DNA from: an uncultured Ruminococcus sp.
Lineage (GTDB): Bacteria > Bacillota > Clostridia > Oscillospirales > CAG-272
Assembly: GCA_964617165.1 (NCBI GenBank)
Contig: CAZTWE010000001.1
Location: 6,510-70,509 of the forward strand
Length of the DNA stretch: 64,000 nucleotides
Direction of reading: 5' to 3'
The notes beneath the pieces are model-generated. The model had not been told where the DNA came from. It saw only the letters and a list, made by a program, of their open reading frames with translations, and did not search any database. Shown piece after piece: positions 5,184 to 29,072 of the stretch (the stretch's first letter is position 1; every line of letters begins with the position of its first letter). A program made the translations under genes and the position numbers.

Positions 5184-7142
5184 ATGAATTTTTTGAAGAA
5201 TAACACAAGATTTTCCCTGGCACTCGGCGGGGTGCCGCTCTCAGAGCAGAAATATACCGTTGAGCATAAAGAAAACGGATGCGAGCTTACCGCCGTGTAC
5301 ACATTTGATTGTGGATTAAAGATTACAAATATCGCTAAAAAATATGAGGGCTTCGATGCATACGAGTGGGTCAGCTGGCTCGAAAACACGTCGAAAGAAA
5401 GTACGGAGATAATATCCGAGCTTTGCGACGGTGATTTTGAGCTTGCTCTCGGAGAGATCAAGCAGAAGGTACGCAGCCCATGGATACCCGATCCCGACGA
5501 GCTTTTGAAGATATACAATCCCTGCGGCTCAAACTGGTCGAAAAATGAATTCTCCTCTTTCCCCGAAGAGCTTGCGGGTGACAGATTTGTAAACTGCATC
5601 CGTGCAGGCGAGGAAAGAAGCTTCCGCGCGGCAGGCGGCAGAAGCTCAGGCGGTGTCAATGCCCCCTTCTTCAATATACATAACAACGGTGTCGGTGCAG
5701 TTGTGGCAATCGGCTGGACGGGTCAGTGGAACTGCAAAATACAGGCAAAATGCGACACGGTACGGGTGCAAACCAAAATTGAGGACACACACTTTGTACT
5801 TCTCCCCGGAGAGAAAATAAGAACCTCATCGGTGGTTGTAATGAACTATACGGGAGATTTCTTTGACGGTCAGAACAAGTGGAGACGGCTTGTAAAGGAA
5901 GAATTTTCCGTTATTACGAAGCGCGGCGGCAAGGGACCGTTCTGCGCCGGTATATGGGGAGGAATGACCTCGGATCGCGTAATAGAGAGAGTTGACATAC
6001 TGAGCGAGAACGGTATCCCTGTAGAATATATATGGATGGATGCCGGATGGTACGGTGAGACGACTCAGCCTACTCTCAGTGAATATGAGGGAGACTGGGC
6101 TGAGCATACGGGTGATTGGACTGTCAGCCCACATATACACCCTCTCGGAATGAAGGATATAACGGCACGCATACGGGAAGTCGGAAAGAAATTTATACTT
6201 TGGTTTGAGCCTGAGAGGATAAGAAAAAACGCTCCCATTGTCAAGGAGCATCCTGAATATCTTATCGCACTGGAAAATACAAACAACGTTCTTTTAAATC
6301 TCGGAAACGAGGAAGCCTTTGATTACATACACGGTCTGCTCTCTTCCTACATAAGAGAGATCGGTATCAACTGCTATAGGCAGGACTTTAATTTTGAGCC
6401 GCTTCCCTATTGGAGATCGGCTGACAGCGACACACGCCGCGGAATTACCGAAATAAAGCACATCATGGGGCTTTACCGCCTTTGGGATGCGCTGCTTGAG
6501 GAATTCCCCGAGCTTATCATAGACAACTGTGCAAGCGGCGGCAGACGCCTTGATATTGAGACCTTGAAGCGCAGCCTACCGCTTTGGAGAAGCGATGCTC
6601 AATGCCCTGCTAACCCAATTCCCGAGATGACGCAGATGCATACGATGAACTTCGCTCTGTGGATGCCCTATCATGGAAGCGGCAGCGGCAGAGTGTACGA
6701 TACGTACAGATTCAGGAGCGCATTCTCCCCCTCAATGACAACGAACTATACCTTCTCCGCATCCGATACGTTCGGTGATGACAAGGAGAAGCTTGAATGG
6801 TTCAGAAAAATGGGTGAGGAATATCTCAGCGTAAGGCAATATTTCTCATGCGACGTTTATCACCTCTGTGTTCCTGACGTAAGCGTGGGCTCATGGAATG
6901 CCGCTCAGTGGAACCGCCCCGAGCAAAAGGACGGCATGATACAAATTTTCAAGCACTCCAGCTCACCCTTTAACACTGCAAGCTTCAAGCTGAGAGGCAT
7001 AGACCCCGAAAAGAACTATCTCATACGTGATATTGACGGCGGTGAGCGTACGGTTAGCGGTCAGGTGCTTTGTACCGAGGGCTTGACAGTTACTCTCACA
7101 GAGGGAAATACCGCAAAGATATATATCTATAAACAGATATGA
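5184..7142 (+). CDS. glycoside hydrolase family 36 (alpha-galactosidase-like)
   Basis: GH36-type motifs: YIWMDAGWY, INCYRQDFN, IIDNCASGGRRLD (CxxGGxR nucleophile region), WRSDAQ. Confidence 0.8.
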   Translation: MNFLKNNTRFSLALGGVPLSEQKYTVEHKENGCELTAVYTFDCGLKITNIAKKYEGFDAYEWVSWLENTSKESTEIISELCDGDFELALGEIKQKVRSPWIPDPDELLKIYNPCGSNWSKNEFSSFPEELAGDRFVNCIRAGEERSFRAAGGRSSGGVNAPFFNIHNNGVGAVVAIGWTGQWNCKIQAKCDTVRVQTKIEDTHFVLLPGEKIRTSSVVVMNYTGDFFDGQNKWRRLVKEEFSVITKRGGKGPFCAGIWGGMTSDRVIERVDILSENGIPVEYIWMDAGWYGETTQPTLSEYEGDWAEHTGDWTVSPHIHPLGMKDITARIREVGKKFILWFEPERIRKNAPIVKEHPEYLIALENTNNVLLNLGNEEAFDYIHGLLSSYIREIGINCYRQDFNFEPLPYWRSADSDTRRGITEIKHIMGLYRLWDALLEEFPELIIDNCASGGRRLDIETLKRSLPLWRSDAQCPANPIPEMTQMHTMNFALWMPYHGSGSGRVYDTYRFRSAFSPSMTTNYTFSASDTFGDDKEKLEWFRKMGEEYLSVRQYFSCDVYHLCVPDVSVGSWNAAQWNRPEQKDGMIQIFKHSSSPFNTASFKLRGIDPEKNYLIRDIDGGERTVSGQVLCTEGLTVTLTEGNTAKIYIYKQI

Positions 7143-15320: not shown

Positions 15321-15894
15321 TTAGATACTCCGTTGTTACTTTTATTCCAAGTTTGCGAACCGTTATCGCTGATTTTCTTTGCAGGAACACCGGCTACTGC
15401 TATACCAGCTTCTAAAACGTCTTTGTTTACGACTGCATTTGCACCGATTGCAACATTGTCCGCAACATGAATACCACCAACTAAAACTGCACCAACACCG
15501 ATAATCACATTGTTCCCAAGGATCGGTGCTTCATTAGTTCTTCCGCCTGCAACCAGCGCTGTATTCATGTGTATAATACACAATTTTCGCCAACCTTCGA
15601 TTTATAATTTATCAAAATCGGACCTACATGCATAATTCTTAATCCCTTTTCACAAACATTTAAAGGAATATGCAAGGAATATTTATTAGACATCTTCATC
15701 AGTCTAATTCTAAATATGAGCGCTCGAAGCTTTTTATTGGTATTAAGATAGTATTCGGAGTTGCGTAAAAGCCACAAATATTTTCTAATAATATCTCTCT
15801 CGCCAATCTGCAAATGATATGTTATAAAATTAAATTTATAACGAGAAAGCTCTAAATCGAGATAATCTCTTAACTGTGCTTTTGTTTTTATCAT
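15317..15894 (-). pseudogene. frameshifted hexapeptide-repeat O-acetyltransferase (WcaB/CysE-like)
   Basis: The N-terminal part (15565..15894, ends ...VGENCVLYT*) and the left-handed beta-helix part (15317..15583, ...NTALVAGGRTNEAPILGNNVIIGVGAVLVGGIHVADNVAIGANAVV...) lie in different frames. The break maps to the GAAAATTG stretch (T4 run at plus 15584-15587). Confidence 0.7.
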
Positions 15895-16001
15895 TAAATT
15901 TCTCCTAACTGCAAAAATAAAATTCCCGTACTCTTTCTACAAAACTGTTCCCATCCGGCTCACGATTGTAATTCTCATAGAATATTCTTTAAGTCCTATT
16001 T

Positions 16002-16187
16002 CTAATGCACTATCTTTCCTTTTATCAGCTTTGACAGCATATTTTGAATAACGCATGCCAAAATCGCAAATCCCAATGCAAAAATATAACTCACAAAAGC
16101 ATTTGTGTTTAAATTTTCTTTCGATATTATGTTAATGGGAATTATATGCCACAAAAACAGCCACAATGAATTCTTAGATACCCACAC
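16002..16187 (-). pseudogene. C-terminal remnant of a membrane acyltransferase (acyltransferase-3-like)
   Basis: 61-aa hydrophobic ORF with SLWLFLWHIIPI, resembling the conserved C-terminal LWH motif of about 340-aa O-acyltransferases. There is no room for the missing N-terminal about 280 aa. Confidence 0.4.
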
Positions 16188-16207
16188 ATTTAATTCTATA
16201 TAGCTGT

Positions 16208-17674
16208 TTATTTAGATCTTTGCGAAAATATGCGAGAGAGGAACGGTATTTGCGATAACTGTTTTCTTCCGTTTGGGAAAGCCATAAAGCAAATGGTATA
16301 AATAACTATGCATATAAATATCGAAAGCACTTGCCATAGTATGTTATCGGATATTTGAAGCATCAAAAATCCGAATGTTCCCATTACAACAGCCGACAAC
16401 AATGAGGGGAGTGTGTTATTTAAAACATCTATAAATCTTATCTTCATTGAAATCTGTGATATCGTAGACGTTATTATAATCAGAATAACCGCTGAAATGG
16501 TATTACAAATAGTTACCGCAGCATAATCAATCGAAGCACCGTAGTACAATACCGGAATTAAAACGACAAGATACAGCGATTGAGCAAGCATGGATAATTT
16601 GGGTTTTCCTCTGCTTCTGAAAACCTCACTATTTAAATAACTGTATACTATCAACAACGCCTGAACCAATGAGCGCATTCCTAAAAACAGAGACGTCTCA
16701 GACCATTGATTTCCCAATAATATTTTTGTAACCAATTCATGATATACAAACATGCCGACTCCCAAAGGAATTAGCAACATGGCAAGAAAACATTGAAATT
16801 TAAAAAATACATTTTGAAATTCAACTTCATTATCCTGAACCCTGGACAATGCGGAAAACATAACAGGGATTGCCGATTGCTGTATGATGCCGAAATAACT
16901 TGATACTGTTGTTATAGTTGTTTTATATAAACCTAAATAGTAAGAGCCAAGTAATGAAGCTAAAATTAAAGTTCCAATATTTGTGCTTAACCATATAGTA
17001 ATATTCTCAGCAATTGTCCATACGCTGAATGATAGCATTGCTTTTAATTCTTTAAAGTTATAGTTAAATCCCGGTTTCCATTTTGAAAGAAAAGTCAACG
17101 CAACGGCATTTACAACATCTTTAGCGAGAATTCCAATGACCAACGCCCAATAACTATGGAAGATAAAAGCAATAGGCACCGTCACAACCAACGGTATGAA
17201 TGAAACCACCATACGAATGGGAAACAGTCTCTTGAAATCGAAATCTCGCTTAAACCTAGCTAGCTGAATGCTGGAAAAAGCCAACAAGGGAATTTCCGCA
17301 CTTATTATTATGATAGCAAGTTCATGCCCCGCTGAGCCTACAAGTGATGCTATAGGTTTAACGAAAACGGCAATAACACCCCAAATCAAAAATGATAATA
17401 TGAGATTTGTCCAAAAAGCTACGTTTGTACTAAGATTGTATTCTTTCTCATTTTCAAATTCATGCTGAATTAAATATTTTTGAAAACCTGCATCAGTGAA
17501 AATCTCAGCAAAGGTTGTTACCATTGTAAGAGTAGCAACTACTCCGAATGCTTCCGGAACTAAAAGTCTTGCAAGAATAGCATTAGTTATTGGAGCAACT
17601 AATTTTGAAACGATTTCTGTTATCGTTGACCACTTTGTGGCCTGTCCAATTTTTTTATTCAATTCTTCGGACAA
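16208..17674 (-). CDS. wzx: Wzx-type oligosaccharide flippase (MOP superfamily)
   Basis: 488 aa, multi-pass membrane protein. N-terminus KWSTITEIVSKLVAPITNAILARLLVPEAFG is typical of polysaccharide-biosynthesis flippases. Confidence 0.85.
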   Translation of the reverse strand: MSEELNKKIGQATKWSTITEIVSKLVAPITNAILARLLVPEAFGVVATLTMVTTFAEIFTDAGFQKYLIQHEFENEKEYNLSTNVAFWTNLILSFLIWGVIAVFVKPIASLVGSAGHELAIIIISAEIPLLAFSSIQLARFKRDFDFKRLFPIRMVVSFIPLVVTVPIAFIFHSYWALVIGILAKDVVNAVALTFLSKWKPGFNYNFKELKAMLSFSVWTIAENITIWLSTNIGTLILASLLGSYYLGLYKTTITTVSSYFGIIQQSAIPVMFSALSRVQDNEVEFQNVFFKFQCFLAMLLIPLGVGMFVYHELVTKILLGNQWSETSLFLGMRSLVQALLIVYSYLNSEVFRSRGKPKLSMLAQSLYLVVLIPVLYYGASIDYAAVTICNTISAVILIIITSTISQISMKIRFIDVLNNTLPSLLSAVVMGTFGFLMLQISDNILWQVLSIFICIVIYTICFMAFPNGRKQLSQIPFLSRIFSQRSK

Positions 17675-17732
17675 ATTATCACCTCATTTCATATTAGCTT
17701 ACACCGCTTTGCCAGCTCGCCTTATGTATTAA

Positions 17733-18866
17733 CTACTTGTATATTCTGGAAACCCTATTTGATATATTACATAAAATCTCATAGCCGATAGTATCTATAG
17801 ATGAAGCGATATCATCGGCTGTGATTACTTGATCTCCGCTTCTTCCGATAAGGACAACCTCATCACCGAGTTTTACGTCAGGAATATCCGAAACATCAAT
17901 CATCATTTGATCCATGCATATACGTCCTAAAATTCCGGCTTTCTTTCCTTTTATAAGAACGTATCCCTTGTTTGACAAGGCTCTGCTGTAACCGTCTGCA
18001 TATCCGGTTGAGACCGTTGCGACAAGCATCTCGCTCTCAGCCTTAAATGTTCTTCCGTAGCCTATTGTGCTGTCAGCGGGAACGCGCTTTACCATTGTTA
18101 CAACGCTTTTCCATTCGAGTGCAGGACGAATTTCTTTCGGCAAAGATACATCTGATGACGGTTTGAGCCCGTACAATGAAATTCCAAGCCTGACAACGTT
18201 ATGAACAGACTTCGGAAGTCGTATTTGAGATAAGCCGCCAGCGGAGTTGAGACAATGAACATACTGTAAGTTCAAATGTGAAAGCTTACTTGCAACAACA
18301 CCGAAAATTTCGATTTGCTTCTCTGTAAATTCAAGATTTTCATCTGATGCGGAATCAGCCACAGCCAAATGAGTAAAAATACCGTTTAAATTGAATATTT
18401 TCGAATATTTTTCAACTATAGCTACAGTTTTATCAATGTCAGATGCATTCAAACCAATCCTGTTCATACCGGTATCTATAGCAAACTGACACTTTATTTT
18501 ACCGTTTGTTTTGTTTGTTTTGTGTGAAAGCTGCTCAGCATATTCCTCGGAAATCAACGTCTGCGTAAGATCATATTCTGACAAAGCTTCAAAACTCTCT
18601 GTCGGAGTATAACCAAGTATAAGAATTTCGCCTTTAACGTTTCCACGGCGCAGTCTTATTGCTTCTTCAACGTTGGAAACTGCAAAATAATCAATACCGA
18701 TGCTTTCCAATGCCTTTGCAACTTCGATATCCCCGTGACCGTATGCATTAGCTTTTACTACTGCTATAATATCCTTTGTATTTTCATATTTGCAAAAGAT
18801 TGAACAGTTTTGTTTTATTTGGTTTAAATCAATTTCACACCAAGATCTTTTTATACTATCCCACAT
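17733..18866 (-). CDS. alr: alanine racemase
   Basis: PLP-lysine motif AVVKANAYGHG, DTGMNRIGL, C-terminal beta-domain (GYGRTF ... GYADGY ... RICMDQ). The start ATG lies 2 nt after the ATP-grasp stop codon. Confidence 0.9.
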   Translation of the reverse strand: MWDSIKRSWCEIDLNQIKQNCSIFCKYENTKDIIAVVKANAYGHGDIEVAKALESIGIDYFAVSNVEEAIRLRRGNVKGEILILGYTPTESFEALSEYDLTQTLISEEYAEQLSHKTNKTNGKIKCQFAIDTGMNRIGLNASDIDKTVAIVEKYSKIFNLNGIFTHLAVADSASDENLEFTEKQIEIFGVVASKLSHLNLQYVHCLNSAGGLSQIRLPKSVHNVVRLGISLYGLKPSSDVSLPKEIRPALEWKSVVTMVKRVPADSTIGYGRTFKAESEMLVATVSTGYADGYSRALSNKGYVLIKGKKAGILGRICMDQMMIDVSDIPDVKLGDEVVLIGRSGDQVITADDIASSIDTIGYEILCNISNRVSRIYK

Positions 18867-18868
18867 TT

Positions 18869-19786
18869 TTATTTCTTATCAGGCAAAATCAACATGTTTC
18901 CAAGCTCTAAATCATGATCGGGATTTTTGAAAGGCATAGTTCCCGACGTTGGGAAAAACGTTAATTCTGAAAAATAAATTTTACTGTTTATTTCATAAAG
19001 ATCAACCCTCAAAAAAGGTATACCCGACGAGAGTTTTTTCGCTATTTCTATCATTTCATCAAAGCAAACAGGCTTTTGAGGAAGTTCCTCATACGGGAGA
19101 TAATCACTTCTCTGATACGGTGCAAACTGCCAATCCAAGGTTACGAAACTTATCCTTGCAGTTGAATGATCTTCAAGCCCTTTGGATATGTAAAGGAATT
19201 TAGGGTCTCCGTTAAAGCAATAAAACTTATAATCTGTCAGTCCGCTTGCAGCAACATGATCCTCCATGTACTGTTCAGCTATGATTCTCGGCTTCACATC
19301 CTTATACGGCCATTCTCTGCCGCTCCAATAATAGTTTCTTCCCAAACTACGTTGGATTTTTTTCTTAGCTCTGTCAAAATCAAAGGTAGCCTTATTTTTG
19401 CATATTGCTAAACCACCACTATCATGAGTGCATTTTAAAACAAATTCATTGGGAAGATTGTCAAAATCAATATCCTCAAATTTTTCCCAAACTCCAAGTG
19501 TAGGAATTATGTACTCTTCACCTATTTTTTGAGATACGTAGCGCTTAGCCTCATATTTGTCTACCATTTGAGTATACAATGGTTTTCTATCATAGAGCTT
19601 TAACCACTGTAGTTTTTCATTAAAAGTTCTTACATTCTTCAAATTTAAAGGTTTTTTCAAGGTTGACTTATATGCACATCTTAAATATACCGAGTCGGGA
19701 AGCCATTTCATGTATCCTCTGGAGCATAATGACGTTATCAAACTCGAAGGATGCGAAATCAAATGCAATATTTTTTTGAGATTCAT
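18869..19786 (-). CDS. ATP-grasp amidoligase, TupA-like
   Basis: KLQWLKLYDRKPLYTQMVDKYEAKRYV ... EFVLKCTHDSGGLAICKNK ... FLRVDLYEINSKIYFSELTFFP resembles the TupA-like ATP-grasp family (from memory). Start set to ATG 19786 (GGAG 7 nt upstream) rather than TTG 19798. Confidence 0.7.
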   Translation of the reverse strand: MNLKKILHLISHPSSLITSLCSRGYMKWLPDSVYLRCAYKSTLKKPLNLKNVRTFNEKLQWLKLYDRKPLYTQMVDKYEAKRYVSQKIGEEYIIPTLGVWEKFEDIDFDNLPNEFVLKCTHDSGGLAICKNKATFDFDRAKKKIQRSLGRNYYWSGREWPYKDVKPRIIAEQYMEDHVAASGLTDYKFYCFNGDPKFLYISKGLEDHSTARISFVTLDWQFAPYQRSDYLPYEELPQKPVCFDEMIEIAKKLSSGIPFLRVDLYEINSKIYFSELTFFPTSGTMPFKNPDHDLELGNMLILPDKK

Positions 19787-19798
19787 ATTACACTCCAA

Positions 19799-20890
19799 TT
19801 AGTTTTCAAGTAATTTATTTGCAAATGTTAGCCATTTATTCCCTATAATTTCACTATTAAAATCCTCGCGCACTTTGCTTGCATTGGCTGCTAATTTGGT
19901 TGCAAGCTCTTTGTTTTCGACAATTTCAACCATGGCATTATATAAAGATTTTGCATCTCCGACAGGAACTAAAATTCCATTTTCGCCATTGCGTATAAGC
20001 ATACGCGGTCCACCGCAAGGACAATCGGTAGATATACAAGGTAATCCAATCGCCATAGCCTCCATAAGTGCATTTGGCATTCCCTCAAAATCAGAAGATA
20101 AAACAAAAAGTCTTGCATCCTTGATGAGATCTAAAACGTTGAGCTTATTACCGGGTAAATCTATATGACACTGTAGGGATTTTTCCGCTATATATTTCTC
20201 CGTTTCTTCTCTCAAACCGCCCTCACCGTATATAGTAAGTCTCATTTCGGGATGCTTTTCTAACAGCAATTCAAAAGCATCTATAAGCAGCTTATGATTC
20301 TTCTGAGGATTCAATCGTCCCATTGTTACAATTGTATTACTCTTTGGCGAATAATCAATCAATGGGATCTCTCCATCCGGAATTGGATTAGGTATTATTA
20401 CGCTTTTCGATGCAATCTTTTTACCGTAAAAATCGCGTGCATCAGGAGTTTGAAAAACATACCCATCACTAAATTTCATGAAGAATCTTGCTACAGTTAT
20501 AGCCAATTTATTACCCGCAAAATGTGCAGGATCGTTTCTTTCGGATACTATCACTTTTGCCCCTATTCCGAAAGTGGATGGAATAATATACGAACAGTCC
20601 GGGACACTCATGACTATAATTACTTTAGGTTTTAACTCTTTTAAAATCTTATGATAGATTTTTATAGCACCAAAATATTCCTTTGGTCTCATATATGTAG
20701 TCTTATCACGCGCAGAAACTCGCAAAACTCTCTCGTCAAGCTCATATTCATTTTCTGTAGGCGCTGTTGATGTTACAATAGCTACTTTTTTGCCATTATC
20801 AGCAAAATACTTAGCCAATCTTACAGTAACACGTTCAGCACCACCGCGTTTCAAGCTTCCCATGATAGCAATATCTATGTTTTGTGACAT
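19799..20890 (-). CDS. GT-B glycosyltransferase (GT4-like)
   Basis: C-terminal EX7E-type region LSSDFEGMPNALMEAMAIGLPCISTDCPCGGPRMLI. Confidence 0.85.
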   Translation of the reverse strand: MSQNIDIAIMGSLKRGGAERVTVRLAKYFADNGKKVAIVTSTAPTENEYELDERVLRVSARDKTTYMRPKEYFGAIKIYHKILKELKPKVIIVMSVPDCSYIIPSTFGIGAKVIVSERNDPAHFAGNKLAITVARFFMKFSDGYVFQTPDARDFYGKKIASKSVIIPNPIPDGEIPLIDYSPKSNTIVTMGRLNPQKNHKLLIDAFELLLEKHPEMRLTIYGEGGLREETEKYIAEKSLQCHIDLPGNKLNVLDLIKDARLFVLSSDFEGMPNALMEAMAIGLPCISTDCPCGGPRMLIRNGENGILVPVGDAKSLYNAMVEIVENKELATKLAANASKVREDFNSEIIGNKWLTFANKLLEN

Positions 20891-20901
20891 CTCTAACCCC
20901 T

Positions 20902-22020
20902 TTATTGATAGAATGTGTAATACGGAAAATAAGTATATGCATCAGACCAACCGTAATACAGCAAAAAGTACACCACGCACATTCCTAATATAATTATGCG
21001 TGCAAAAAACTTTTTATATCCCGTAGAATTCTCAACTGCCTTAGCAAATGCGATAGCGTTAACGCATCCAAAATAGTAGCTCATTCTATACAAAAAATAA
21101 GATGTGTATCCTGCTAATCTGGATGGAAAGACAAGCATGATGGTATTACTGATTTTACGTTCACGATCTATTCGTCTGCGATAAAAAAGTGCCGGAATAA
21201 CTGTGGGAATCATAGTTAATACAAGCCCCAATCCCAAACTGACCGCCTCATATCCTACGAAATATTTCTCGTAATATTTCGTTCCAACAAATAATCTTCC
21301 CACAACAGACATGATAGGTTCAAGAGCAAATGCTGATACAGCAATCAAAATAAAATAAACTAGCTGTCTTACATTGGATTTTCTGTTAAATTGAACTGCA
21401 TATGTAAGCACGGCAGCGGGTATCGCACTCATGTGTATCAATCCGGCAATGACAGATAAAAATACGTATGGCTTAATCTTTTTGTTATAAGCATACCAAT
21501 ATGCATACAACATAATCGATACTGCTATCATCTGTCTCGCCTGATTAAATAGCAAAGGACCATAACAACTTAAGAATACAAGTATTGCAAACGCAGATTC
21601 TTTTATTTTCCACTTTTCTATGGTCAATATAACAAAATACATCGTAATAAAAGCGATAAGAGAAAAGTATATTTGAACGTTTGCATCTGTCATCCTGCTA
21701 ACCAACCAACGAAAAAGTTGAAACAGTACGGCTGATGCATCTTCTGCAAGTGCCTGTTCAAGAGACATTCCGCTTTGACTTACATATACATTCCACATAT
21801 TGAACGTATCTGCGCCTACCGTTTGACCTCTTATTCCAACCATTATGGAAATAGGAGCGATAACTATAATTCTAAGTATGAACTTAATTACAAACGGTAA
21901 TTTCACCTTAATGCATATAACGTTGTTATAGAAATATACCATTGCAGATGAAATCAAAAACACAATCCATAATTTTACTATAGATTCACCGTAGAAACTC
22001 AAGCTTTGAAAAAAACTCAT
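20902..22020 (-). CDS. EpsG/Wzy-like polysaccharide polymerase
   Basis: 372-aa highly hydrophobic multi-pass protein with no soluble domain, placed among glycosyltransferases; composition typical of the EpsG family. Confidence 0.65.
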   Translation of the reverse strand: MSFFQSLSFYGESIVKLWIVFLISSAMVYFYNNVICIKVKLPFVIKFILRIIVIAPISIMVGIRGQTVGADTFNMWNVYVSQSGMSLEQALAEDASAVLFQLFRWLVSRMTDANVQIYFSLIAFITMYFVILTIEKWKIKESAFAILVFLSCYGPLLFNQARQMIAVSIMLYAYWYAYNKKIKPYVFLSVIAGLIHMSAIPAAVLTYAVQFNRKSNVRQLVYFILIAVSAFALEPIMSVVGRLFVGTKYYEKYFVGYEAVSLGLGLVLTMIPTVIPALFYRRRIDRERKISNTIMLVFPSRLAGYTSYFLYRMSYYFGCVNAIAFAKAVENSTGYKKFFARIIILGMCVVYFLLYYGWSDAYTYFPYYTFYQ

Positions 22021-22023
22021 ACC

Positions 22024-23187
22024 TCATCCTTTTGAAGCAACATCAATACCGGCAGCCTCACTGATAAATATTTTACGCTTATGGTTAATTTTGTCAAACT
22101 CATATTCTTTCGCAGATTCAAAATTCTTTTTTGCTTGCGCATACATCTCATCACGTGTCATACTCTCTATGCATTTGCATATATCAGAAACCGATTTTCT
22201 TCGGCAAACGTATTTCTTATCAATAAGCTCCGGGATTCCGGCGGTTTTGAAGCCTATCGCGGGCATGGCACAGCTCATTGCCTCAATCATAGCACGCGGC
22301 AATCCTTCTTGCAACGAAGGCTGTATGTATATATCAGCTTTAGATAAATGATCGTATACCTCATCATGCTTTATGGAACCTGTAAATATTACATTATCCG
22401 TCAGTTCATAACGTTCGCACAAATTACGGAGTCTGTCTTGGTTGCCGCCACCTATTATGATATATCGCAAATCATATCCCTTTTTCTTCAATTTGTACAT
22501 GGCTTCCAAAACATAAGCCTGTCCTTTGTATTTTACATCAACCGCAGCAGTTGTACACAATGTCATTGTCTTCATATCGGTTGACTCTATCTTTTCAAGT
22601 CTTTGCGCCAAAGCTTCTTCTCGAATACCGGTAATTTTAACATTGGATATTCCTATAGATTTTCCATTTGTAGGATACTCTTTTTGCAAAAACTGCTGTG
22701 TTACATAAACAACATAGTTTGCATTCTTAATCATATTTTTTGCTTGGATTTCAAAATAAGGCGCAACAAGCTTTCCTTTCAGTGAATAATTCCAATTTGC
22801 ATCCCAAGAGCTACCTACAACCTCTACAACATAAGGCTTATTATATTTTTTGGCATACTTTACAGCTATTGCTGCAAAAAAAGACTGCCGTGCTATTACA
22901 AAATCGACTGCTAATACCTCTTTTTCGATGTATGCCTCTATTTCTTTACGTTTAGTAAAATATTCGATTGCATTAAGCCCCAATTTGGTAAGATGAAAGT
23001 TTACATTATCTGTGCTTGATATCGTATACCGTTCCGGATTATCACATTCTTTGACACGTCCCACAATGTTAAGTTCATCAAAAATATTTAAGTATCTTTC
23101 CTGCCATACAGTGGCAGTTTGGGAAGTTTCATAGTAAAGTTCTCCATGTTTCATATACTTGGTTGAATAGACGAACAAAGCTTTCAT
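22024..23187 (-). CDS. GT-B glycosyltransferase (GT4-like)
   Basis: QPSLQEGLPRAMIEAMSCAMPAIGFKTAGIPELI. Start set to ATG 23187 (MKALFVY, AAAGGGGA upstream), 1 nt after the upstream stop. Confidence 0.85.
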   Translation of the reverse strand: MKALFVYSTKYMKHGELYYETSQTATVWQERYLNIFDELNIVGRVKECDNPERYTISSTDNVNFHLTKLGLNAIEYFTKRKEIEAYIEKEVLAVDFVIARQSFFAAIAVKYAKKYNKPYVVEVVGSSWDANWNYSLKGKLVAPYFEIQAKNMIKNANYVVYVTQQFLQKEYPTNGKSIGISNVKITGIREEALAQRLEKIESTDMKTMTLCTTAAVDVKYKGQAYVLEAMYKLKKKGYDLRYIIIGGGNQDRLRNLCERYELTDNVIFTGSIKHDEVYDHLSKADIYIQPSLQEGLPRAMIEAMSCAMPAIGFKTAGIPELIDKKYVCRRKSVSDICKCIESMTRDEMYAQAKKNFESAKEYEFDKINHKRKIFISEAAGIDVASKG

Positions 23188-23188
23188 T

Positions 23189-24349
23189 TTAAAAATCCCC
23201 TTTCTTGGCATAATACGGTTTTAGGAAATCATCTGTAATACTATCCCACGAATAATTTCTTGCTGCATATTCTCTCATTTCCTGTGCAACGTTTTTATTA
23301 TCTTTGTAAGACAAATAAAACTCTTCTACTGCGTGCATGTCGACCAAGCTTTCATCATCAGGAATTTCCATCACATAAGGGTAATTTTGAGGAACGCAGA
23401 CTTCTTCACCCGCGTAAAAATACGGAATGCCTATTCCGAAATATTCTTTTGTTTTCAAACCTGTACCCTTTTTACCGCCTACACGATGCTGACAAACAGG
23501 ACCAATTCCTAAATTACATAAGCTGTATATATCGGTTAATTCCTGTCCAAACTTCTTTCCGTATAAAAATACATGATTTTCCAAACCAAGATCATTCACA
23601 AGTTTTTTTGTGCTGTCATTTATTGTACCAACTAAATGTAGATTGATTCTCCTAGCACCAGGAAAAGCTTTATTGTATTCGTACAAACTCTTTATCAGCC
23701 TATCATATCCATGGTATGGTCTCTCAATAGCGACCGATATCATATTTATTTCCTCAGGATCACCAACATACACATGCTTTTCCAGTTTATCTAATGATAT
23801 ACCGATAGATGCATGAACTGTTTTTTTGCCCCATAAATATTCCAAATCTCCCTCTGTTAGAAACGTATCAATTTGTTCAGCCGCAATCTTGTGAAACAAA
23901 TCAGTATTGAATGTCATGTATTTGCTTTTCAAGTTTGAAAACTTGATACCGGGAAAGTAACTATGCATGTCAACAATAACATGCGATTTTTTTCGCTTTT
24001 TTATTGTTTTCAGTAGTGCAATGTACGGAATATCAAACCCAAGCCATCTCAAAAAGGCAATATCAACTTTGGGTTCAAAATTTTTTAAATACGAATTGGC
24101 AACACTCAACAATTCAAATCGCCTTGAAATCGCTCTAAGCTTTTCATTTTTAAATAGATACTTCTTTTCATAAATAAGTTGATCATTGTTATCAAACACT
24201 TGTATCCCATTTTCCCCATACGCTGTATAAAATACTGCATGTCCTTTTTTTCTAAAAGCATCTATAGTACCTTTTAATTTTTTTGTAACGCCTATACTAT
24301 CATCCGAAGGAGTAAAATTAACGACCATAAAAATATTCAGCAATTCCAT
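23189..24349 (-). CDS. divergent GT-B-fold glycosyltransferase
   Basis: Two Rossmann-like halves and a C-terminal GKKGTGLKTKEYFGIGIPYFYAG. It lacks a clean EX7E motif. Confidence 0.55.
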   Translation of the reverse strand: MELLNIFMVVNFTPSDDSIGVTKKLKGTIDAFRKKGHAVFYTAYGENGIQVFDNNDQLIYEKKYLFKNEKLRAISRRFELLSVANSYLKNFEPKVDIAFLRWLGFDIPYIALLKTIKKRKKSHVIVDMHSYFPGIKFSNLKSKYMTFNTDLFHKIAAEQIDTFLTEGDLEYLWGKKTVHASIGISLDKLEKHVYVGDPEEINMISVAIERPYHGYDRLIKSLYEYNKAFPGARRINLHLVGTINDSTKKLVNDLGLENHVFLYGKKFGQELTDIYSLCNLGIGPVCQHRVGGKKGTGLKTKEYFGIGIPYFYAGEEVCVPQNYPYVMEIPDDESLVDMHAVEEFYLSYKDNKNVAQEMREYAARNYSWDSITDDFLKPYYAKKGDF

Positions 24350-26254: not shown

Positions 26255-27484
26255 TTATTCAAAGCAGGCTCTGATTATTTCGATTATCTTGTTCTGCTCT
26301 TCCACAGTCATTTTATTGTCACTCGGCAGGCAAAGGCCGCGAGCGAAAATGTCCGAGACGACGTCTGCCGCGCCGCTGCTTGCTATGTAGGCGTTGGTTG
26401 CGCCTCTGGCGTTGCCGTTCCTTGTGACAAACGGATTCATGCGGTAGATCGGCTGAGAGTGCATAGGCTTCCATATCGGTCTGCCCTCAGCGTTGTGCTT
26501 TTCCAACGCTTCCAATATCTCGGTAGGGCAGCTCTTGCCGGGCTCTTTTACGTAGCATGCCTCACTGTCACTGCGCACCTGGCGGCACATAGCGTCCTTA
26601 TCTATGATAAGGCAGGAGAGCCAGAAGTTCGGCTCCATGATTTCGCGGATGTACGGATTCATCGAAACGGGGAGATCGGATAACCCCTCTTTATATCTCA
26701 TATATATTGCCTTCTTTGCGGCAATATGCTCGGAAAGATACGGATACTGACCGCGTACAACGCCTGCAATAACGTTGCTCATACGGTAGTTGTAGCCTAC
26801 CTCCTCATGCTGATACCACGGAGCATCCTCTCTGCTCTGAGTTGACCATTTGCGCGCTCTGTTTGCCGCGTCAAGATCATCGGTAAGAAGCATTCCGCCC
26901 GAGGAGCCCGTTATCATCTTGTTACCGTTGAAGGAGATGACGTTGTATTTGCCGAAGGTACCGGTCTCGGCTCCCTTGTACGTAGCTCCGAGCGATTCGG
27001 CAGCATCCTCAATAAGCGTTGCACCGTGCTTATCGCAGATCGCACGGATCTCGTCAAGCTTGGCGGGTGTGCCGTATAGGTTTGCAAGCATAACCAGCTT
27101 TGTATCGGGATAAAGCTCAAACGCACGCTCAAGCGCTACGGGGTCCATGTTCCATGTTTCATACTCGGAATCAATGAAAATAGGATTTCCTTTTTCGTAA
27201 ACCACGGGATTTACGGTAGCCGCAAAGGTAAGATCGGTGCAGAACACATTGTCTCCCGGCTTAACGCCCGCAAGCTTTACAGCTAAGTGGAGCGCGGCGG
27301 TTCCTGCGGAAAGCGCAACGGCATATTTGCAGCCGATGATCTCGGCTGTCATTCGCTCTACCTCGTTGATGTTCTTACCTACTGTGGACATCCAGTTGGT
27401 TTCATAAGCTTCTGTCATGTACCTCAGCTCATCCCCATGCATGGTGGGAGAGGAGAGGTATACTCTTTTCTTGAAGGGTTCCAT
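26255..27484 (-). CDS. DegT/EpsN/PglE-family PLP-dependent sugar aminotransferase
   Basis: ALSAGTAALHLA, IEDAAESLGATY, SFNGNKMITGSSGG (PLP lysine). RBS GAAAGGA lies upstream of ATG 27484. Confidence 0.9.
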   Translation of the reverse strand: MEPFKKRVYLSSPTMHGDELRYMTEAYETNWMSTVGKNINEVERMTAEIIGCKYAVALSAGTAALHLAVKLAGVKPGDNVFCTDLTFAATVNPVVYEKGNPIFIDSEYETWNMDPVALERAFELYPDTKLVMLANLYGTPAKLDEIRAICDKHGATLIEDAAESLGATYKGAETGTFGKYNVISFNGNKMITGSSGGMLLTDDLDAANRARKWSTQSREDAPWYQHEEVGYNYRMSNVIAGVVRGQYPYLSEHIAAKKAIYMRYKEGLSDLPVSMNPYIREIMEPNFWLSCLIIDKDAMCRQVRSDSEACYVKEPGKSCPTEILEALEKHNAEGRPIWKPMHSQPIYRMNPFVTRNGNARGATNAYIASSGAADVVSDIFARGLCLPSDNKMTVEEQNKIIEIIRACFE

Positions 27485-27501
27485 TTTTCTTTTTCCTTTC
27501 G

Positions 27502-27778
27502 TAGCCGTAAGAGAGTCGAACGCACAAGGTTTTAGGTAATAGATTTTCCCATATTCATCACCGAAATTATCTTAAATATCCGCATATTCCTCGATAATTT
27601 TGGCTCGCCTATGAAAAAATCTATTTACCTAAAACTGCTCTGCACCTACGGCAAATAAATTTTTTGTGGATTTTGGTGTACTTCGTCGCAGTAAAGTGAG
27701 CACTTTGCAAGGCGGAGTACGACGAAAGACACTAAAATTTATTGCCGTAGGCTTGTGTGGTCGGCTCTCTTACGGCTA
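27502..27778. other. 277-nt nested inverted-repeat element (three-way-junction topology) between the predicted EPS promoter and the first EPS gene
   Basis: Outer stem 27502-27528 : 27752-27778 (27 positions; 1 mismatch, 2 G/T). Arm A 27529-27547 : 27616-27635 (19 bp, 1 bulge) with inner 27561-27571 : 27593-27603. Arm B 27645-27663 : 27734-27751 (18 bp, 1 bulge) with inner 27676-27688 : 27720-27732. Confidence 0.6.
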
Positions 27779-27899
27779 AGCTCGCTATCTGCTAAAAAAC
27801 ATAAGAATAGCCGATTGGTTGCTTTCGTCATTGTTGAGAACAGCTGAAAATCGGCGGAGGCATTAAATATTTGCATTGTGAGTATCATTCATGACCAAT

Positions 27900-27928
27900 A
27901 GTATACCACTTCATACGCAAAAAGTCAA
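27900..27928 (-). promoter_or_regulatory. candidate sigmaA promoter of the EPS operon
   Basis: Minus strand reads TTGACT (27928-27923), 17 nt, TATACT (27905-27900). This implies a leader of about 400 nt before ATG 27484. Confidence 0.4.
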
Positions 27929-28084
27929 TATTTATGCGCTGTTTTTTTGCTCGATATGCAAATAAAAAGCCCGTAGTTTGCCTTATTTTGCCATAAATGG
28001 TTGAATATTGGTATTTTATAACTCCCTCTCTACAAATTAACAATTGAGGCGCGCGTTTTATTGCACCGATGCGTAACAAAAGAA

Positions 28085-28129
28085 CAAAGCCGATATTTTT
28101 ACCGCATGGACAGCGGCATATCGGCTTTG
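28085..28129 (-). terminator. rho-independent terminator after the pfkB-family gene
   Basis: Perfect 12-bp stem: CAAAGCCGATAT (28085-28096) pairs with ATATCGGCTTTG (28118-28129). On the minus strand it is followed by TTCTTTTGTT. Confidence 0.65.
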
Positions 28130-28136
28130 TTAAAAT

Positions 28137-29072
28137 TCAGTTTTTGAGAAATTTCTCTACGTCTGCTACCTTAGGAGGCCTTGTGCCGGGTGTGAGGCAT
28201 GCCGCGCTCCCGAAAGCAACGGCGACCCTGAGCGCAGCCTCAAACTCCATACCTCCGGCAAGGGCATGCAAAAATCCCGCTATTGAGCTGTCACCCGCAC
28301 CTATCGTGGAGATCGGCTTTATTTTCGGGGCAGGGGCATGGTATGTGGCATCCCGTGTCACAAGCACCGCACCCTTTGCACCGAGGCTGATCATAACGTT
28401 TTCAATTCCCGCGTTGCAAAGCTCTCTGCCTGCCTCGGCTGCCGCTTCGGGGGTTTGTACAGCTCTTCCCATATAAGCTGCGATCTCTTCCTCATTGGGT
28501 TTTATAAGGAACGGCCTTGTCTCGATAAGATCATCAAGCGTGAAGGAGCGGGAATCTATGACCACCTTTACGCCACGCTCACTGAGTCTTTTGACGTAGG
28601 ACTTGACGTCGGATAGCGAAACACCGTCCGGCACTCTGCCCGTCAAGGTCAGAATTGTCCCCCGGGAAGCCAGATTATCCGTCGTATTTTCGACACGGGT
28701 AAGCAGGTCGGCGGATGCAGAGGTGCCTTTAAAGCTTATTCGCGTTTCGTTACCGTCGGCTGTATGAATGGTGATATTTTCCCGTATTCTTCCCTTTTCC
28801 CATATCGGGTGATATGATATACCGTCACTTGCGAGGGCGCGTGCAAAGCTATCGCCGTTTTCCTCACCCAGAACTACGACAGCCTCGCTCTCCGTTCCGA
28901 ATGAGCTGAGTGCTCTTGATATGTTCACTCCTTTTCCGCCTGCATCATAATCGGTTATCGTTGCAAGGTTCTCGTGGTTTACTTCTATTCTCTCGGCATT
29001 GCAATGTATATCGAATGCAGAAGAGAGCGTTAACGTCACTATTTTCATATTCATCTGTGCGAAATTTGACAC
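28137..29072 (-). CDS. 1-phosphofructokinase-type PfkB-family sugar-phosphate kinase
   Basis: AGGKGVNISRAL, LIKPNEEE, and C-terminal ISTIGAGDSSIAGFLHAL (PfkB signature 2). Confidence 0.75.
   Translation of the reverse strand: MSNFAQMNMKIVTLTLSSAFDIHCNAERIEVNHENLATITDYDAGGKGVNISRALSSFGTESEAVVVLGEENGDSFARALASDGISYHPIWEKGRIRENITIHTADGNETRISFKGTSASADLLTRVENTTDNLASRGTILTLTGRVPDGVSLSDVKSYVKRLSERGVKVVIDSRSFTLDDLIETRPFLIKPNEEEIAAYMGRAVQTPEAAAEAGRELCNAGIENVMISLGAKGAVLVTRDATYHAPAPKIKPISTIGAGDSSIAGFLHALAGGMEFEAALRVAVAFGSAACLTPGTRPPKVADVEKFLKN

Follow-up and report, generated by a model that had tools for sequence, protein, structure and literature searches.

The REP, BIME and REPIN sequences are palindromic repeats of intergenic regions with conserved hairpins. 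They occur in arrays, persist for a long time at orthologous sites and are more strongly conserved than would be expected of junk DNA. Bacterial MITEs are recognised by terminal inverted repeats, a terminal TA, a target-site duplication, A+T richness and highly structured transcripts (PMC2229807). Many accepted bacterial MITEs, e.g. the Correia elements, have no related autonomous insertion sequence (IS) (PMC2229807). RNase III binds Correia elements and then either cleaves or protects them (PMC2649163). Small mobile repeats have barely been described in uncultured gut Clostridia.

The window analysed here, i.e. the whole stretch of 64,000 nucleotides from an uncultured Ruminococcus sp., contained a 277-nt nested palindrome directly in front of an operon for polysaccharide (EPS) synthesis. 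It is highly probable that this palindrome is one copy of a non-coding, multi-copy and TA-flanked mobile repeat of about 278 nt, MITE-like or REPIN-like, which belongs to uncultured gut Clostridia and landed at the EPS locus. The element works most like the Correia/NEMIS, RUP and ERIC elements (PMC2229807, PMC10969869). The Correia elements of Neisseria (CREE/NEMIS) resemble it in being non-coding, multi-copy and intergenic, with terminal inverted repeats of about 24-26 bp and a terminal TA with duplication; they also have no identified transposase, are often found just upstream of genes, are co-transcribed and form long hairpins (PMC2649163, PMC2229807). However, they measure 100-155 bp and fold into one hairpin, whereas the window element has 277 nt and two nested arms, and they come from another phylum and have no sequence similarity to it. 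The ends of Correia elements can create promoters and their core has an IHF site, whereas the window element is without a promoter match. RUP of Streptococcus pneumoniae is a MITE of the Firmicutes with terminal inverted repeats which inserts at TA, is presumed to be moved in trans and enters other mobile elements (PMC2229807). In contrast to the window family, for which no matching IS was found, RUP is 107 bp long and has terminal repeats that match IS630-Spn1. ERIC/IRU and YPAL are imperfect palindromes of 127-168 bp in transcribed intergenic regions, and ERIC has a terminal TA with duplication (PMC2229807), but both are unrelated in sequence, shorter, composed of a single hairpin and found in another phylum. 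With its TA-sharing arrays and conserved orthologous copies the window family is also reminiscent of REP and REPIN sequences. These differ in size (20-40 nt for REPs and about 70-110 nt for REPIN doublets) and in their GTAG-type head, and they are defined by a linked RAYT (Y1 HUH) gene, of which none recurred in the loci fetched; the units of the window family comprise about 278 nt with long repeats flanked by TA. As to length, 277 nt exceeds the classical limit for bacterial MITEs of <200 bp (PMC2229807). None of the known families compared here has any sequence in common with the element, which stems from another lineage, is larger than they are and has two nested arms in place of one hairpin. 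A described MITE of such a kind from Clostridia was found neither in the searchable literature nor in Rfam. The features of the palindrome and of its immediate surroundings are listed in Table 1.

Table 1. Features of the nested palindrome and its neighbourhood (positions in the window)
Feature	Position	Strand	Basis
Complete 277-nt copy of the dispersed nested-palindrome repeat, both terminal TA included	27502-27778		End-to-end alignment with about 25 full-length copies
Left flanking/terminal TA, probable target-site duplication	27502-27503		TA at 121 of 127 distinct ends
Right flanking/terminal TA	27777-27778		Shared with the left end
Left terminal inverted repeat, 5' strand of the outer stem	27502-27528	+	Hardly any variation in the first 20 nt within family 1
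Right terminal inverted repeat, 3' strand of the outer stem	27752-27778	+	3 of 27 positions non-Watson-Crick against the left arm
Arm A hairpin	27529-27635		Consensus helices 2-5; compensatory changes in 26 of 36 pairs
Arm A apex with family-wide motif TCTTAAATATCCGCATATTCCTC	27570-27592	+	Core ATAT....ATAT invariant; columns in A1 and A2
Junction of arms A and B, TGCTCTGCA	27636-27644	+	Small 3-bp helix in the consensus
Arm B hairpin	27645-27751		Consensus helices 7-10; compensatory changes in 22 of 36 pairs
Conserved arm B motif GGATTTTGG	27668-27676	+	Consensus partner CGAAAGAC (27723-27730), largely G.T wobbles
Arm B apex with family-wide motif CAGTAAAGTGAGCACTTTGCAAGG	27689-27712	+	Kept in three subfamilies; end point of half-copies L050 and L051
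GAAAGGA, Shine-Dalgarno sequence for the DegT-family aminotransferase, separated from the palindrome by 1 nt	27494-27500	-	Read from the sequence
DegT/DnrJ/EryC1-family aminotransferase, first EPS gene (neighbour, not part of the palindrome)	26255-27484	-	Pfam, 1.5e-77
Sigma-70-like promoter match TTGACT-17-TATACT, upstream of the palindrome	27900-27928	-	Consensus match, 10 of 12 hexamer positions; TG before the second hexamer

All helices listed in the preliminary description of this DNA were located by direct reading of the sequence. Twenty-four of the 27 pairs in the outer stem are Watson-Crick pairs and there is one true mismatch (A27520:G27760); T27516:G27764 and G27522:T27758 form wobble pairs on the plus strand. 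The outer helix of arm A pairs 27529-27547 with 27616-27635 and the inner helix 27561-27571 with 27593-27603. The corresponding helices of arm B are formed by 27645-27663 with 27734-27751 and by 27670-27688 with 27720-27738. Two positions within the arms distinguish the strands, as had been noted before: G27563:T27601 fits the plus strand only and C27681:A27727 the minus strand only. The three-way topology was recovered as the minimum-energy fold of both strands. As RNA, the plus strand folded with -132.3 kcal/mol (z -14.8) and the minus strand with -119.6 kcal/mol (z -11.0); as DNA, the plus strand reached -75.7 kcal/mol (z -13.5). In each case none of 200 shuffled sequences was as low.

The palindrome is non-coding, with stops in all six frames and a longest open stretch of 48 codons, and its G+C content is 0.404 compared to 0.451 for the window. 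Rfam gave no match over positions 26500-29000 at E <= 1. On six other loci bearing a copy its matches were confined to a neighbouring tRNA and to chance similarities below threshold (e.g. MIR7807, with 32 bits against a cut-off of 90). Two ideas about the make-up of the element were rejected. Arms A and B might have arisen by internal duplication, but their alignment score was only 1.5 sd above that of shuffled sequences. The terminal GGTTCGA resembles a T-arm, but on reading the sequence the tRNA-like ends proved to be without a complementary T-stem.

The palindrome is not restricted to the EPS locus. When a 20-mer of the outer arm was scanned against genome contigs, with one genome per species, it was found in 86 stretches compared to about 17 expected by chance, distributed over at least 17 MAGs. 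Nearly all of the stretches lay in MAGs assigned to Clostridia, Eubacteriales, Oscillospiraceae or Candidatus Scatosoma by their labels; where MAG titles named a host, the source was a ruminant gut. In a single MAG up to about 18 contigs were hit. Among the matches listed, the record prefixes JAFVQL01, JAZORO01, JAZNDN01 and JAFTQT01 accounted for about 18, 15, 12 and 12 stretches, respectively. Many of the matches were located 119-141 nt from the ends of k141 contigs, which is the classic signature of a repeat that breaks assemblies. BLAST and nhmmer together gave about 95 matches. These included about 25 full-length copies of 276-279 nt with 74-84% identity to the window copy. Similarity among the copies is confined precisely to TAGCCGTAAGAGAG...CTCTCTTACGGCTA; beyond these ends the flanking DNA is unrelated. 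In all, the family occupies more than 60 unrelated intergenic sites in at least 17 genomes, and its distinct flanks number more than 120. Each copy has terminal inverted repeats of 20-27 bp (TA-GCCGTAAGAGAGTCGAAC...) around two long internal hairpins.

The copies examined were intergenic among the main genes of their loci, and only a few overlapped short or poorly supported ORFs. They were found between tandem, divergent and convergent genes, with the element in either orientation. The family combines terminal inverted repeats, a lack of coding capacity, dispersed intergenic copies, A+T richness and stable stem-loops, as MITEs do. Such a large and unusually structured MITE/REPIN-like family is hereby documented for uncultured gut Clostridia. 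Within the 64-kb window no further copy was detected by BLAST, by nhmmer or with an arm pattern allowing 3 mismatches. The element had no match in viral contigs or in plasmid and phage collections. A metagenome scan with a 20-mer of the terminal repeat returned 6 stretches only, none of them closer to the window copy.

The genome from which the window was taken lay outside the scanned set, and its multi-copy status is therefore judged from two assembly breaks. In the source sample SRR14307642 both Logan contigs carrying the flanking genes break inside the palindrome, at positions 27578 and 27701. The repeat nature of the palindrome explains why short-read assemblies break at the EPS locus.

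It might be thought from its position that the palindrome serves the EPS genes. The headline reading of the preliminary description was indeed an RNA leader dedicated to cis-regulation of the EPS operon, selected for a role in antitermination, translational control or RNase III processing. The aminotransferase gene heads a run of polysaccharide genes on the minus strand which extends to at least position 16208 and probably to about 9169. The palindrome lies between this gene and the sole good promoter-like site, and it forms an extremely stable structure. As described previously, the outer stem has its base (27502) next to the Shine-Dalgarno sequence, at a distance of 1 nt; a distance of 17 nt separates it from the ATG (27484). 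The promoter-like match was also recovered: TTGACT-17-TATACT was the best of four consensus matches between 27000 and 28600 and the sole good candidate in the intergenic region of 652 nt. However, homologous copies adjoin unrelated genes, lie between convergent genes and take both orientations with respect to downstream genes. A copy 0-5 nt in front of the Shine-Dalgarno sequence was found at no fewer than six unrelated genes (loci L075, L073, L031/L091, L002/L076, L043/L061 and L060). Since these genes share it, the position next to the Shine-Dalgarno sequence is customary for the family, or is simply tolerated there, and does not characterise the EPS operon.

Moreover, an Rfam match is lacking, positions 27000 to 28600 contain no terminator-like site and the flank has no U-tract. 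Nor does the leader, as its fold is predicted, sequester the Shine-Dalgarno sequence. Its probability of being unpaired was 0.45 with the palindrome and 0.25 without it, so that it is no more paired when the palindrome is present. Many copies at unrelated sites had been named beforehand as the observation that would speak against an EPS regulator, and with copies that are 74-84% identical this is what the search returned. A leader made for the EPS operon is accordingly very improbable. The miniature inverted-repeat insertion, which the preliminary description had put among its possible readings, was borne out by the many dispersed copies at unrelated sites; of the earlier interpretation, then, the mobile insertion was supported and the dedicated EPS leader was not. 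Being dispersed next to unrelated genes in many genomes, the palindrome is therefore an insertion of the parasitic type rather than a regulator made for EPS synthesis. In searches for regulatory RNAs it should be masked as a repeat and not be taken for an EPS riboswitch or leader.

As a mobile repeat, the element would have inserted with its end 1 nt before the Shine-Dalgarno sequence of the leading EPS gene, where it is most simply regarded as a passenger. Probably it rides in the EPS leader. If transcripts start at the upstream promoter-like site, their leader would measure about 400 nt and would contain the palindrome as a structure of its own with about -120 kcal/mol. According to the model of the leader it is predicted to fold on its own and not to mask the Shine-Dalgarno sequence. 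By analogy with Correia elements it is plausible that the long duplexes (27 bp and more) would be a substrate of RNase III, which might alter processing or stability of the mRNA. We infer that any effect on EPS expression would be secondary.

Inverted repeats upstream of polysaccharide loci are also the typical layout of invertons, which are common in gut bacteria. In the palindrome 27-bp inverted repeats enclose about 220 bp, an operon for surface polysaccharide follows immediately and the organism is a gut anaerobe; across different genomes both orientations of the element to the downstream gene were seen. One might therefore imagine an invertase that flips the 223-bp segment between the 27-bp repeats, causing phase variation of EPS expression. 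Several observations make this hardly credible. A sigma-70-like promoter was absent from the inside of the palindrome on both strands in the consensus scan of 27000-28600. Copies between convergent genes, in tandem, nested or truncated are not what would be expected of a switch, and in all three pairs of orthologous loci the orientation was the same. The two Logan contigs break about 50 nt inside the repeats, whereas mixed orientations would break at the repeat boundary. Finally, neither a recombinase nor a transposase was present among the 40 ORFs of the window that were scanned.

Returning to the mobile repeat, nearly all of its ends are flanked by TA (Table 1). Seven ends abut another element, and in the adjoining copies that were read the two elements have a single TA in common (L012, L035, L044, L054, L070 and L071). 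At locus L026 a family-1 copy is inserted in a family-3 copy, giving GGACT-TA-[element]-TA-GCAAGAG, where the intact family-3 sequence is GGACTTTGCAAGAG. Judged from the sequence, such nesting would fit either a duplicated TA target or a TA crossover core. The target flank has Y at -4, G at -3, G or C at -2 (96 of 115) and T at -1. It can be written roughly as (T)GST|TA and is not A/T-rich. With its G-S-Y|TA the preferred flank is similar to CGGC|TA, the end of the element itself. The target of IS630 is reported as CTAG. The TA flank would suit a MITE of the IS630/Tc1-mariner type, but (T)GST|TA is not CTAG, and an IS630-like partner was not found in the loci searched.

An empty site was sought in two ways. 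A metagenome scan for joined flanks with a gap of 0-4 nt gave 0 matches, and exact-protein look-ups of the flanking genes led only to contigs of the same sample. Since the nearest relative of the flanking kinase was only 65% identical, there was no near relative in the collections in which an empty site could be compared. Because no empty site was recovered, mobility and TA duplication are deduced from the tandem and nested copies, and a duplicated TA, a TA owned by the element and a TA crossover core are not separable.

Movement of the element would depend on a transposase or recombinase that acts in trans and is specific for TA. Candidates would be an enzyme of the IS630/Tc1 type, one of the IS5 (IS427) type or a site-specific one whose core is TA. 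In 87 loci there were no pairs of terminal repeats 1-2 kb apart, and no autonomous IS with matching terminal repeats was found in these loci or in the plasmid and phage collections. Neither a transposase-like nor a RAYT-like ORF recurred near the copies in the loci fetched. The sole ORF family that did recur resembles, on reading of its sequence, sugar-type oxidoreductases.

Copies of family 1 are adjoined by members of sister subfamilies which have equal length and architecture but other stems and other terminal repeats, for example TAGGGACAAGAGAGCGA...GAAC in L071 and TAGGCAAGAGAGAATAATCCGAAC in L044 and L075. Some motifs are common to all subfamilies: the tip AATAT-YNNY-ATATT in arm A, GATTTTG with CGAAAG and the tip CAAGT...ACTTTRCAAG in arm B, and AAAACTGC at the junction. 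A consensus fold of 22 sequences from three subfamilies kept the three-way topology that had been noted for the window copy, with 94.2% of cells paired. Compensatory changes were present in 65 of 100 pairs, compared to 39 +/- 3 after shuffling of columns and 20-26 with slid partners. Because the stems covary between subfamilies and the loop motifs are fixed, the nested hairpins are probably needed for propagation or persistence. A transposase that reads the terminal repeats alone explains neither the covariation of the internal arms nor the higher conservation of orthologous copies compared to the DNA on either side. The latter was observed in three pairs of orthologous loci from different species-level MAGs, all of which kept the orientation of the element. 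The orthologous copies were 98.6-99.6% identical, compared to 87.5-97.8% for the mostly coding flanks. Judged from these three pairs only, the higher conservation points to constraint or to homogenisation among copies.

These data could be taken to mean more than passive dispersal of a MITE, namely that the element is under purifying selection for its single-stranded form. There are two ways in which this might come about. The element might be beneficial to the host in the manner of REP sequences, stabilising mRNA or organising the nucleoid, or it might move via a folded single-stranded DNA or RNA which is read by a HUH/RAYT-like enzyme or a TA-core recombinase. The covariation speaks in favour of such selection, together with loop and junction motifs that stay invariant across three subfamilies with differing stems and terminal repeats, and so does the conservation of orthologous copies. 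Furthermore, 214 G.T pairs compared to 8 A.C pairs in arm B favour the plus strand of the window and point to one folding strand. The similarity of the target flank to the end CGGC|TA is expected of a recombinase reading similar half-sites in donor and target, and a DDE transposase partner was not seen.

However, intrastrand template switching can produce covariation in DNA palindromes without any selection, and gene conversion among copies could also raise the conservation that was seen in the three orthologous pairs. The strand signal is not uniform either. With 44 A.C pairs compared to 31 G.T pairs, arm A leans slightly to the opposite strand, and the mean folding energies of the two strands across the family are almost equal (-120.0 and -117.6 kcal/mol). 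The preliminary description had found wobble positions in favour of either strand, and at the family level the two arms conflict as well. Nor was there a significant bias in orientation, either by GC skew (29:21) or by coding strand (23:14), unlike in IS200/IS605 or REP systems. Palindromic elements derived from IS200/IS605 (PATE) have no terminal inverted repeats, insert strand-specifically 3' of a fixed tetra- or pentanucleotide and are oriented with the replication strand; the window family departs from them in its long terminal repeats and in this lack of orientation bias.

Selection on the folded strand is, on balance, possible but the less likely account. The same tentative standing applies to its wider form, in which these T-shaped elements of about 278 nt would be an undescribed superfamily kept by selection on the folded single strand, either moved by an enzyme or domesticated in a REP-like fashion, and not decaying derivatives of an IS. 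A selected structure is the more interesting rival of the simple mobile repeat, and it cannot be separated yet from homogenisation of DNA palindromes by template switching. In any case, the family is repeatedly placed against ribosome-binding sites, its evolution preserves the structure and its orthologous copies are well conserved. If this conservation reflects function, it would provide a handle on the mobilising enzyme or on REP-like post-transcriptional effects in gut Clostridia.

In addition to full-length copies the mobile repeat has left a number of derivatives. The apex of arm A is a hot spot for breakpoints in truncated copies: half-copies from six independent loci have their break at, or no more than about 4 nt from, TTAAATAT, most of them ending with this sequence, and other half-copies are broken at the tip of arm B. 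The ORFs beside truncated copies look like ordinary host genes. Further derivatives were solo outer stems of 38-46 nt, a one-arm form of 163 nt and chimeras between subfamilies, and one copy carried an insertion of 146 nt at the tip of arm A.

Three insertions of the nested-palindrome repeat (277 nt in the window copy) are shared by orthologous loci in different species-level MAGs of gut Clostridia (see table). Between the members of each pair the repeat was 98.6-99.6% identical, compared with 87.5-97.8% for the 400-nt flanks on each side. Judged by sequence, the neighbouring coding DNA of these three pairs is changing faster than the repeat.

Copies of the repeat and its derivatives (coordinates local to each locus)
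Feature	Locus	Position	Orthologous insertion
Orthologous pair	L002	6528-6806	L076 3808-4086
Orthologous pair	L061	6953-7230	L043 423-700
Orthologous pair	L031	2649-2927	L091 1023-1300
Sister-subfamily copy	L071	2203-2478	
Sister-subfamily copy	L044	1984-2261	
Sister-subfamily copy	L075	1253-1529	
Sister-subfamily copy	L026	~5529-5733 and stretch left of 5253	
Arm-A half-copy	L014	3544-3622	
Arm-A half-copy	L054	256-332	
Arm-A half-copy	L058	6284-6362	
Arm-A half-copy	L060	3407-3484	
Arm-A half-copy	L080	2038-2120	
Arm-A half-copy	L083	2874-2953	
Arm-B half-copy	L050		
Arm-B half-copy	L051		
Mini-derivative	L010	3716-3761	
Mini-derivative	L048	4746-4791	
Mini-derivative	L016	1178-1215	
Mini-derivative	L055	~7019-7056	
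Mini-derivative	L086	5453-5498	

Independent half-copies break off at the hairpin tips; most of those from arm A stop no more than about 4 nt from TTAAATAT. Such endpoints suggest that the tips are cut, whether by the host (SbcCD-like) or by the enzyme that mobilises the repeat. At L060 an unrelated insert of 146 nt lies at the same arm-A breakpoint. The mini-derivatives (38-46 nt) consist of the outer stem alone or of the left end of family 1, to which the window copy belongs, fused to a family-3-like right end; they look like footprints of internal deletion or recombination.

The sister subfamilies match family 1 in length, three-way architecture and loop motifs and differ from it in terminal repeats and stems. 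The listed copies abut family-1 copies, with a TA common to both, and in L026 the family-1 copy splits its neighbour. A family-2 copy at L012 2862-3200 appears to be broken shortly past its left terminal repeat by unlike G+C-rich sequence, possibly another repeat family.

The sequence flanking the target site is not A/T-rich. Across about 120 element ends in loci L002-L095, the consensus preceding the TA was approximately (T)G-S-T, with G or C at position -2 in 96 of 115. This consensus, (T)G-S-T/TA, is similar to the repeat's own terminus, CGGC/TA.

Around the window copy, the G+C fraction falls to 0.35-0.37 in window 16001-24000 from about 0.46 elsewhere, which suggests that the central EPS genes may be a variable cassette gained horizontally. 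The low-G+C segment spans glycosyltransferase, EpsG, ATP-grasp, alanine-racemase-like and flippase genes. The 887 nt that separate the flippase gene from the galactokinase-like gene (15321-16207) contain no ORF of at least 150 aa. A possible operator lies upstream of the window copy: a 22-nt imperfect inverted repeat (27864-27885 and 27913-27934, with 77% complementarity) that surrounds and partly covers the promoter-like TTGACT-17-TATACT. At 27863-27876, TTAAATATTTGCAT shares 12 of 14 positions with the motif at the tip of arm A, probably by chance.
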